Below, piece by piece: positions 30,850-31,754 of a stretch of 64,000 bases of DNA. The translations under genes were made by a program, and so were the position numbers. The number at the start of each line of letters is the position of its first letter. The first letter of the stretch is position 1. The stretch is from a virus (Duplodnaviria > Caudoviricetes). The DNA lies in the IMG/VR virus record IMGVR_UViG_3300032007_000017. One strand, given 5' to 3'. A model generated the notes under the pieces. It did not search any database. It was not told the DNA's origin and was given only the letters and a program-made list of their open reading frames with translations.

Positions 30850-31672
30850 GAAAAAAAAAGAAAGAGCAGAAGCTCTTTCTTTCTTGTCCCGAGTTTTCAT
30901 CGGGGCTTCTTCAGAAGATAGCGTTCTTCTGAACTCTCTACCTTTTGCCTGCTTCAACGCAATCATATGTGGAAACTCCACAAGAGAATCTCCTGCTTCA
31001 ACACTTCCATGATGCTCCACAAACTACAAGAGGTAAAATGGTTTCATCTTGACGTGGCTATGTCAAGATTCCTACTCTACCCAGCTTCTTCATTTGATAT
31101 CTTTATCTGGTCTCGGCGCGGTGGCGCTTCCCGACTATTAGGATAACCAAACTCCACCAGTTGAAGTAAATTATATTCTACGATTACCAGGGCCGGTAAT
31201 CGGAATATGTGTTGGTAGAGGGGAGGACTCTAGAAGTCGTATCGTACCCCCTCTATCGGATCCACACTGCAGAACTGCAGTCTCTGCAATTCGGGTAGTT
31301 AGTAACGGATCCTACTGCTACCCTAGCCCGTCTGTTGGACGGGACCTAAAGTCCTGGACATAGCGCGCCAACGTTCGCGGCACGCAAGGCGAGCCCAAGA
31401 TGGGAGTGCCGAACTTTTATGCGAGTCATCACTTTTACGCGAATCCTCTCTCGCACCCCCGCAGGTCGGCGTCTACGGGGAAATCGGTGCCCTAACGGGA
31501 TCTACACCCGTCAGGATTTAGATGACAGAAAGCCAGCCGGCCGGTAAAGATCATATGGACATTCTCTCACGGGTGTAAAAATACTAACCAGTAGGCCGCT
31601 CTATAAACGAGACCACACCTAAAGGCTCACCGGAACGTCAGATACTAAACGAGCCAACCCGCCTTCCATCAC
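30850..31672 (-). ncRNA. Large (~820 nt) highly structured non-coding RNA candidate
   Basis: GC-enriched and lacking a credible ORF; more than 10 helices with G-U pairs on the minus strand; own early promoter (31675-31687) and terminator (30851-30884). Confidence 0.8.
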
Positions 31673-31754
31673 CTTAATAATATGTAACCATGTTTATAAT
31701 TAATTACGATTTTTATCACTTTCAACATTTCATTAAAGAAAGGTGGGTGTTACA

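Follow-up and report, generated by a model that had tools for sequence, protein, structure and literature searches.

Each class of structured bacterial or phage RNA longer than 500 nucleotides (nt) that has been studied so far has proved to be a ribozyme, the core of a ribonucleoprotein or, in the latest case, a self-assembling cage, and to our knowledge fewer than twelve such classes are known. Here we describe a candidate for a further one, an element of about 820 nt read on the minus strand of IMG/VR virus record IMGVR_UViG_3300032007_000017, a stretch of 64,000 nt from a virus of the Caudoviricetes that was analysed at its full length and is called the window throughout. The window belongs to a jumbo phage that counts Bacillus phages AR9 and PBS1 among its distant relatives. 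The element, hereafter the window RNA, is very probably a real gene for a structured non-coding RNA, and we think it fairly likely that this is a stand-alone gene whose product is a large, stably folded, trans-acting RNA of no described family; more tentatively, we suggest that it acts as a folded particle in the manner of a scaffold or decoy. In kind it belongs with the large phage RNAs of unknown function such as GOLLD and ROOL; the family is new and so far confined to one phage species.

ROOL (RF03087, ~580 nt), a large structured RNA that phages and prophages encode and for which no protein partner is known, resembles the window RNA in these respects, but it has conserved pseudoknots and often lies near tRNA islands, whereas the window RNA gives no match to its model and has no proven pseudoknot. 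The packaging RNA of phi29 (pRNA; RF00044) is much shorter (~174 nt), is part of the packaging motor and multimerises by loop-loop pairing; it is made from an early promoter as a stand-alone RNA in a Firmicute-type phage. It works as a folded particle, as we propose for the window RNA, which it also resembles as a stand-alone phage non-coding RNA with an early promoter, but its model also finds no match here and nothing ties the window RNA to packaging. GOLLD (RF01998) is phage-encoded, ~800 nt long, rich in helices, of unknown function and less conserved in its 5′ part, all as the window RNA is. It differs in being widespread where the window RNA is so far known from a single phage species, in its frequent tRNA neighbours, of which there are none here, and in the failure of its model to match at E ≤ 10; it also rises during lysis, according to work cited in 10.1101/2024.12.08.627333, whereas the window RNA has an early promoter motif. 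ROOL self-assembles through kissing loops and A-minor contacts, and in OLE and GOLLD the chains are joined by symmetric kissing bridges between palindromic loops (10.1101/2024.12.08.627333). The palindromic loops of the window RNA could make symmetric contacts similar to the kissing contacts of the 14-mer GOLLD cage described in the same work.

A GC-rich island without a reading frame

The window RNA occupies a GC-rich island in a gap of ~960 nt (30797-31755) between two divergent genes. The GC fraction of the island is 0.54-0.56 at 31200-31650, compared with 0.32-0.37 in its flanks and 0.376 over the whole window. Eleven GC islands occur in the 64 kb and this is the single one without an open frame, its longest stop-free stretch reaching 65 amino acids (aa) of a possible 166 while the other ten islands are open nearly from end to end. 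No open reading frame (ORF) of more than 65 aa exists on either strand of the island, gene callers placed no gene in the gap in any of nine assemblies (9/9), and ARAGORN found neither tRNA nor tmRNA in the 64-kb window. A coding reading is excluded by the eight natural variants introduced below, across which no ORF is conserved and among which there are insertions or deletions of 1, 2 and 4 nt. Two small candidates fare no better, as a leaderless ORF of 16 codons at +2 is shortened to seven codons in four variants, and a 36-codon ORF with a GUG start is without a Shine-Dalgarno (SD) sequence and its changes are mostly non-synonymous.

A probable early transcription unit upstream of a late gene

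Early promoters of AR9, which are used by the injected virion RNA polymerase (RNAP), have the form AAATATATATTAT-(6N)-G+1 and were mapped by differential RNA sequencing and primer extension, while the late consensus is AACA-(6N)-TA/G and genes active throughout infection carry both an early and a late promoter upstream (PMC5312081). A motif matching the early form, an exact TACATATTAT, precedes the island, is invariant in 8/8 variants and predicts a start at G31670, the first base of the helix that closes the 5′ end of the fold. This motif is no isolated occurrence. In the form YAYATATTAT-N6-G/A the window has at least 16 copies of it, most of them behind terminators and 10-30 nt ahead of an SD sequence and ATG, and when one mismatch is allowed there are 33 matches against 14.3 expected, a count reached by 0/100 shuffles. 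Examples elsewhere in the window stand at 14031-14040(-), 23753-23762(-), 40406-40415(-), 43717-43726(+) and 57322-57331(-). The late motif AACA-N6-TA lies directly ahead of many window genes, both neighbours of the island included, and the temporal class of most genes in the window appears legible from these two motifs, each of which matches the AR9 consensus.

At its 3′ end the island closes with an intrinsic terminator (hairpin 30885-30854, U-run 30859-30851) whose stem is invariant among the variants and whose U-run is 9-11 long; a consensus terminator scan missed it because the stem is A-U rich. Near-identical terminators occur at 22561-22588 and 7531-7557 (GAAAGAGC-UUCU-GCUCUUUC followed by a U-run), and the type looks like a shared cassette in this phage. 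The late promoter, SD sequence and ATG of the downstream polymerase gene all lie beyond the terminator. From the early motif, the terminator and the separate late promoter downstream we infer that the island is laid out as an early transcription unit of its own, upstream of a late gene. An earlier note on this DNA, made from the letters alone, had proposed a non-coding unit of ~820 nt with its own promoter and a U-rich terminator in a GC-enriched island without a credible ORF. Each of these points is borne out, transcription itself being read from motifs: the island is GC-rich with no long frame, the promoter motif is of the AR9 early type, the terminator is a 14-bp hairpin with U9 of a type that recurs in the phage, and the unit can now be drawn from G31670 to the end of the U-run.

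A phage with 49% identity in the polymerase subunit shows a similar arrangement. Immediately ahead of that gene, its metagenome contig Ga0265294_10042724 (L016, 883-1450) carries an ORF-free RNA of ~520 nt with 53-59% GC versus 28% and a z-score of -12. An AR9-type early motif (TATATATTAT-N6-G) stands before this hairpin array, which ends in a terminal hairpin, and a late-type motif lies between that hairpin and the polymerase gene. This RNA is thus like the window RNA in position and layout (early motif, ORF-free GC-rich RNA, hairpin, late-type motif), but it is built of ~20 short and partly repeated hairpins whereas the window RNA is without internal repeats. It matches no tRNA or Rfam family, and it does not resemble the window RNA in sequence or by model.

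Such an order could also arise if the RNA were a giant 5′ leader or attenuator of the gene for the virion-RNAP beta subunit, with early transcripts reading past the terminator in an amount set by RNA structure and thereby expressing the polymerase gene early at a low level. The RNA does lie directly upstream of that gene in the same orientation, AR9 genes expressed throughout infection do have early and late promoters (PMC5312081), and the 49% relative does show the same succession from early promoter to polymerase gene. The terminator is nevertheless strong (14 bp and U9-11) and invariant, and the polymerase gene keeps an SD sequence and a late promoter of its own, the latter also kept in a 71% relative that is without the RNA. 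The homologous AR9 gene encodes a virion subunit, a class that is late in AR9, with no obvious need for early expression. Relatives at 71%, 70%, 68%, 67% and 64% polymerase identity have just 62-113 nt upstream of the gene, with neither the RNA nor any such leader, and we found no conserved antiterminator pairing, as an 11-nt complement to the promoter region of the polymerase gene, past the terminator, is broken in 6/8 variants. Because the terminator is invariant and strong, the gene is of the late class and the RNA is absent from close relatives, we regard a leader role as distinctly unlikely.

Strong predicted folding and signs of selection

The window RNA is predicted to fold strongly and on one strand. 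The minimum free energy is -312 kcal/mol for an 841-nt version (z -7.5 versus shuffles) and -303.9 kcal/mol (z -6.0) from the predicted start, compared with -262.9 kcal/mol (z -2.9) for the opposite strand. This asymmetry of 41 kcal/mol derives largely from G-U pairs and fixes the minus strand as the RNA strand. The predicted architecture comprises a 5′ domain (31670-31524), a three-way junction, a core made of a run of hairpins (31350-31209), two long interrupted hairpin domains, two small hairpins and the terminator. The 5′ domain is the most variable part of the RNA and is closed by 18 pairs, all of them 100% paired in the eight variants with G-U/G-C and U-G/U-A switches; inside it lies a palindromic hairpin that takes the form GCCCAUAUGGGC, the form GCCAAUAUUGGC or, in the window copy, a weak form. 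All 18 hairpin loops of the RNA differ in sequence, none of them is a GNRA or UNCG tetraloop, and no direct repeat longer than 21 nt is present within the RNA. An 11-mer, GUUGAAGCAGG, occurs twice on the minus strand of the 3′ long hairpin domain (30948-30958 and 30992-31002, 44 nt apart), each copy partly in an internal loop. Both copies are kept in 6/8 variants, the second having a single G-to-A change in contigs L037 and L040, and the two could be a pair of binding sites; in IMG/VR the doubled motif returned tandem repeats and chance matches only.

Natural variants were assembled from the window and seven contigs (Logan, ENA, JGI) belonging to a cluster of 99%-identical polymerase proteins, and the element is present between the same genes in 7/7 of the fetched contigs. 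The eight RNA copies are 93.4-99.8% identical (differing by 0.2-6.6%) and their flanking coding DNA 97.1-99.4% (differing by 0.6-2.9%), and the RNA copies are mosaics in which allelic blocks are found in all combinations. The RNAalifold consensus of the eight has 252 pairs, and 99.6% of its 2015 cells are paired. Seven pairs (18 cells) have changed on both sides with pairing kept, and the observed covariation score and this number of cells were each reached in 0/500 column shuffles. When partners were slid by 1-3 columns, only 0-1 double-change pairs and 41-48% pairing remained. Variable columns are threefold fewer among paired positions than among unpaired ones (7.9% vs 24.5%; Fisher p 6e-11). 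The clearest compensatory case is the hairpin at 30933-30909, for which a second allele, UUUAGGAC/GUCCUAAA, in L037, L039 and L040 differs by three double changes (C-G to U-A, A-U to G-C and G-C to C-G). Beyond the consensus no convincing long-range covarying helix was found in the eight-variant alignment. A core of ~100 nt (roughly 31358-31279) has 0-1 variable columns per 40 (alignment columns 321-400), loops included, against 4-15 elsewhere, and is more conserved than the neighbouring coding DNA. As far as these sequences can tell, the compensatory changes together with a core more conserved than its coding neighbours indicate present-day selection on the RNA.

Several structural claims of the earlier note can be judged from these results. 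Its choice of strand, made from G-U pairs, is confirmed by the 41 kcal/mol by which the opposite strand folds worse. The ten helices that it listed are all present in the sequence, nine of them (9/10) in the consensus of the eight variants, and compensatory changes among these variants support the structure. As for its description as an ornate RNA, the prediction is mostly a string of hairpins and the proposed pseudoknot has a local rival, so that the term cannot yet be taken in a tertiary sense.

That pseudoknot is a long-range helix, UUUACACCCGU/ACGGGUGUAGA, whose arms are genuinely complementary and cross the 5′ domain as the earlier note had said; the helix stands outside the consensus fold, and the 3′ arm has a competing local hairpin. 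In the core of the pseudoknot 62/64 cells are paired, with one A-U to G-C switch in five variants and mismatches in L037 and L040, whereas 96% of the cells of the local hairpin are paired, with one U-A to C-G switch and a C-A mismatch in L018 and L042. Judged by the variants, the two pairings are about equally well supported, and they could be alternative conformers.

The selection pattern also bears on the proposal that the locus works as DNA and is merely served by transcription, as an R-loop origin of the ColE1 RNA II or T4 ori type in which the early transcript primes replication. An early promoter motif facing a non-coding GC-rich tract in an AT-rich genome would suit such an origin, the RNA strand is slightly G-rich (plus-strand GC skew -0.01 to -0.17), and we know of no described origin for AR9-like phages. 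It would not account for strand-specific pairing with many G-U pairs and the energy difference between strands, nor for compensatory changes that keep RNA hairpins at a distance from every plausible priming site; the transcript would stop at a strong terminator, and no such tract was detected in close relatives. We consider this reading very improbable.

Table 1. Positions of the window RNA, its parts and its neighbours in the 64,000-nt window
Feature	Position	Strand	Description
RNA itself	30851..31670	minus	~812-820 nt, bounded by +1 and the last base of the U-run; fold z -6.0, 252 consensus pairs, no Rfam match
Early (virion-RNAP type) promoter motif TACATATTAT	31677..31686	minus	Matches the AR9 early consensus; N6, then G31670 as predicted +1
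5′ domain	31524..31670	minus	First 10 nt (GAUGGAAGGC) pair with GCUUUCUGUC, then an 8-bp second helix; multi-branch
Two competing pairings	31503..31577	minus	Long-range helix 31577-31566/31514-31503 versus local hairpin of the 3′ arm
Central core, four hairpins	31209..31350	minus	Two GGAUCCG motifs
Two-allele hairpin UUCAGAAGA/UCUUCUGAA	30909..30933	minus	Clearest compensatory case; 8/8 variants fully paired
Intrinsic terminator	30851..30885	minus	14-bp stem (AAGAAAGAAAGAGC / GCUCUUUCUUUUUU), loop UUCU, U-run of 9; invariant helix in variants
Late promoter AACA-N6-TA of the downstream polymerase gene (not part of the RNA)	30821..30832	minus	Match to AR9 late consensus
Downstream gene, virion RNA polymerase beta subunit, C-terminal half	29477..30796	minus	AR9 gp263 homologue; phrog_2962, E 1e-54
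Late promoter of the divergent upstream gene	31724-31735	plus	AACA-N6-TA motif
Divergent upstream gene, 218 aa, phrog_12252 of unknown function	31756..32411	plus	phrog_12252, E 3e-27

Comparison with known families

A cmscan search with Rfam 15 (4227 models) at gathering thresholds gave 0 matches anywhere in the window, and with relaxed filters and E ≤ 10 over 30700-31850 (1151 nt) it listed 13, only terminator look-alikes and chance matches; as a control, the tRNAs of a related phage were recovered by the Rfam scan. Neither GOLLD (RF01998), a family marked by a conserved multi-stem region at the 3′ side, nor ROOL (RF03087) is among the 13. The earlier note had suggested that the RNA was either one of these two or a new class, and of these branches the first finds no support and the second is supported as the option that remains after the negative scan. 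A GOLLD or ROOL that has diverged beyond the reach of the Rfam models would still fit the phage origin and, for GOLLD, the size of ~820 nt, as well as the more variable 5′ part, the more conserved interior and the palindromic loops. The absence of tRNA genes from the 64-kb window tells against it, although for GOLLD the link with tRNA is frequent and not obligatory and the phage location is shared; no motif common to the RNAs was recognised, and with both models silent in the relaxed scan we consider such a relationship extremely unlikely.

Other classes were rejected on similar grounds. OLE (RF01071) and HEARO, the omegaRNA of IscB (RF02033), have no model match, and where the partner genes oapA/oapB or IscB would be expected adjacent, the neighbours are a polymerase subunit gene and phrog_12252. 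Group I and group II introns are not supported by any Intron_gpI, Intron_gpII or group-II-D1D4 match at E ≤ 10, and the RNA, with its own promoter and terminator, does not interrupt a host gene with exons to either side, as such introns do, but lies between divergent genes that are each complete with a promoter of their own. RNase P RNA, tmRNA, signal recognition particle RNA, 6S RNA and the known ribozymes have no Rfam match, nor is there an ARAGORN match. A sponge of the CsrB/RsmZ type, which displays a short motif such as GGA many times over in its hairpin loops, is not suggested by 18 loops that all differ, by 13 occurrences of GGA against ~16 estimated from composition, or by the loop k-mers, none of which is dominant. 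As regards an antisense regulator, the window contains no complement of at least 15 nt elsewhere, only terminator look-alikes. What the locus does appear to share is the general character of a large structured phage non-coding RNA gene, with promoter and terminator motifs of its own, no ORF and a structure kept by covariation.

Distribution and neighbourhood

Searches for homologues were negative throughout. Blastn (word 11) of the RNA found none in 50,697 phage records or 72,556 plasmids, exact patterns of its core had no match in IMG/VR or 185,579 species genomes, and BLAST against four whole related phage records was also negative. Three covariance models, R1 for the core, R2 for the 5′ domain and R3 for columns 474-640, together cover 460 of 820 nt; G001-G004 were searched with all three, AR9 with R2 and R3, and G005-G009 as well as the remainder of the window with R1. 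They found no second copy in the rest of the window, in the nine related IMG/VR phages (~65-100% complete by CheckV) or in AR9. At the syntenic site, 11 IMG/VR relatives at 42-53% polymerase identity have coding sequence, and the one GC-rich candidate there, L083, proved to be two small minus-strand genes with SD and ATG. The RNA stands at a synteny break, in that the genes on its 5′ side do not adjoin the polymerase gene in relatives. Its absence at the syntenic sites of relatives and this break therefore point to a lineage-restricted acquisition, as far as the compared genomes go.

An acquisition of this kind could be a passenger that lacks any trans function, for instance a decayed intron, the remnant of a homing-endonuclease cassette or foreign GC-rich DNA, which came to rest in a permissive gap next to an RNA polymerase gene. 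The RNA is indeed restricted to one lineage and placed at a synteny break, its copies vary as mosaics, and jumbo-phage polymerase genes are favoured targets of introns and homing endonucleases, AR9 gp264, which adjoins gp263, being one. Yet no intron, omegaRNA or ribozyme of Rfam matches at E ≤ 10, the RNA lies outside any gene, and its promoter is set exactly at the first base of the closing helix and paired with a terminator of its own. No second copy exists in the window or in the ten related genomes searched, and the compensatory changes and a core conserved beyond coding DNA indicate present-day selection on the RNA. We give a mobile remnant only a small chance and continue to favour a stand-alone RNA gene.

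The product of the downstream gene shares 32% identity with gp263 of AR9, which bears the annotation 'RNA polymerase beta subunit, C-terminus; virion RNAP subunit', and a further RNA polymerase subunit fragment lies at 23828-25387. Homologues of the phrog_12252 gene were found in six IMG/VR phages and there is no GC island beside any of them. Of nine other proteins tested near the RNA, eight (8/9) lack a Pfam domain, and the remaining one belongs to a further polymerase subunit. In one assembly this phage is represented by a 270-kb contig.

GC islands elsewhere were also inspected. In two complete related genomes the islands are coding except for a tRNA array and for two short ones (200-300 nt) that match neither Rfam nor tRNA. 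The array, seven tRNAs in a related phage of 290 kb (L072:976-1949; G001 219475-220448), came up as ORF-free GC islands and provided the positive control of both the island scan and Rfam. In the window itself a second island of 54% GC (40426-40975) ends at a terminator that is followed by an early promoter; it is open over 169/183 codons and is probably a gene (168 aa) with no PHROG match. Contig L001 (2569-3525; IMGVR_UViG_3300045988_100587) has an ORF of 318 aa with ~42% GC in a phage of 29% GC, adjoining the polymerase subunit gene; no PHROG family matches it, and it may have arrived by a further insertion at this hotspot. A fragment of a glycine-rich ORF with 54% GC (L019:1-238) lies where the contig of the 71% relative ends.

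Discussion

We propose a model in which the window RNA is transcribed by the virion RNA polymerase within minutes of infection and, with both of its ends locked in helices, would be long-lived. The invariant core of ~100 nt, conserved in loops as well as stems, would provide the working surface that binds a partner, and the variable peripheral hairpins would serve as structural spacers. The folded particle would then hold a host or phage macromolecule, as a scaffold or decoy, during the early takeover of the cell. The RNA would accordingly be neither an antisense regulator nor a leader nor a ribozyme of a known class, and the antisense role in particular is unlikely because the window offers no complement of 15 nt or more and the 11-nt match is broken in six variants. 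We put forward the scaffold or decoy mechanism as a tentative suggestion only, since we hold it to be a good deal less secure than the existence of the RNA gene.

The RNA may in addition assemble with itself through palindromic loops, as GOLLD, ROOL and OLE do. Four hairpin loops hold palindromes of 6 nt (CAUAUG, AACGUU, GGAUCC and UCUAGA, two of which include one closing base) where about one is expected by our own estimate, and variants of the AACGUU loop stay self-complementary by means of wobble pairs. These loops are a weak hint at self-assembly, which we consider unlikely on balance.

A number of observations weigh against our reading. All eight variants come from a single phage species and are mosaic, and the compensatory changes therefore trace to few events; three of the seven double-change pairs (3/7) sit in one hairpin allele. 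RNAalifold, moreover, chooses the structure that best fits the alignment on which it is then scored. The fold as predicted is mostly a string of ~18 hairpins with three multi-helix domains, GNRA tetraloops and proven long-range contacts were not found in it, and palindromic hexamers are not enriched over the whole RNA (12 vs 12.4 expected). No homologue was found beyond this lineage, and relatives at 42-71% polymerase identity are without the RNA at the site. The RNA thus appears to be dispensable for this type of phage, because these relatives manage without it at the site and no match was found in the records of nine relatives or in AR9.

The narrow distribution limits covariation analysis, and because of it the RNA is to be regarded as serving an accessory function and not a core one. 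It is distinctive nonetheless in its setting, a jumbo phage that brings its own multisubunit RNA polymerases, and in that the injected polymerase appears to make it as an immediate-early product whose ends can be precisely defined, all of which makes it directly testable in vitro. A more ambitious possibility is that it founds a new class of large RNA-only machines, either a homo-oligomer joined by palindromic loops that encloses or sequesters a host factor early in infection, or a new large ribozyme; we think this improbable, but if it were true the hairpin array of L016 would have evolved independently as another solution at that genomic position. As a stand-alone gene, the window RNA would for the first time link a large structured RNA to the early takeover phase of a jumbo phage.

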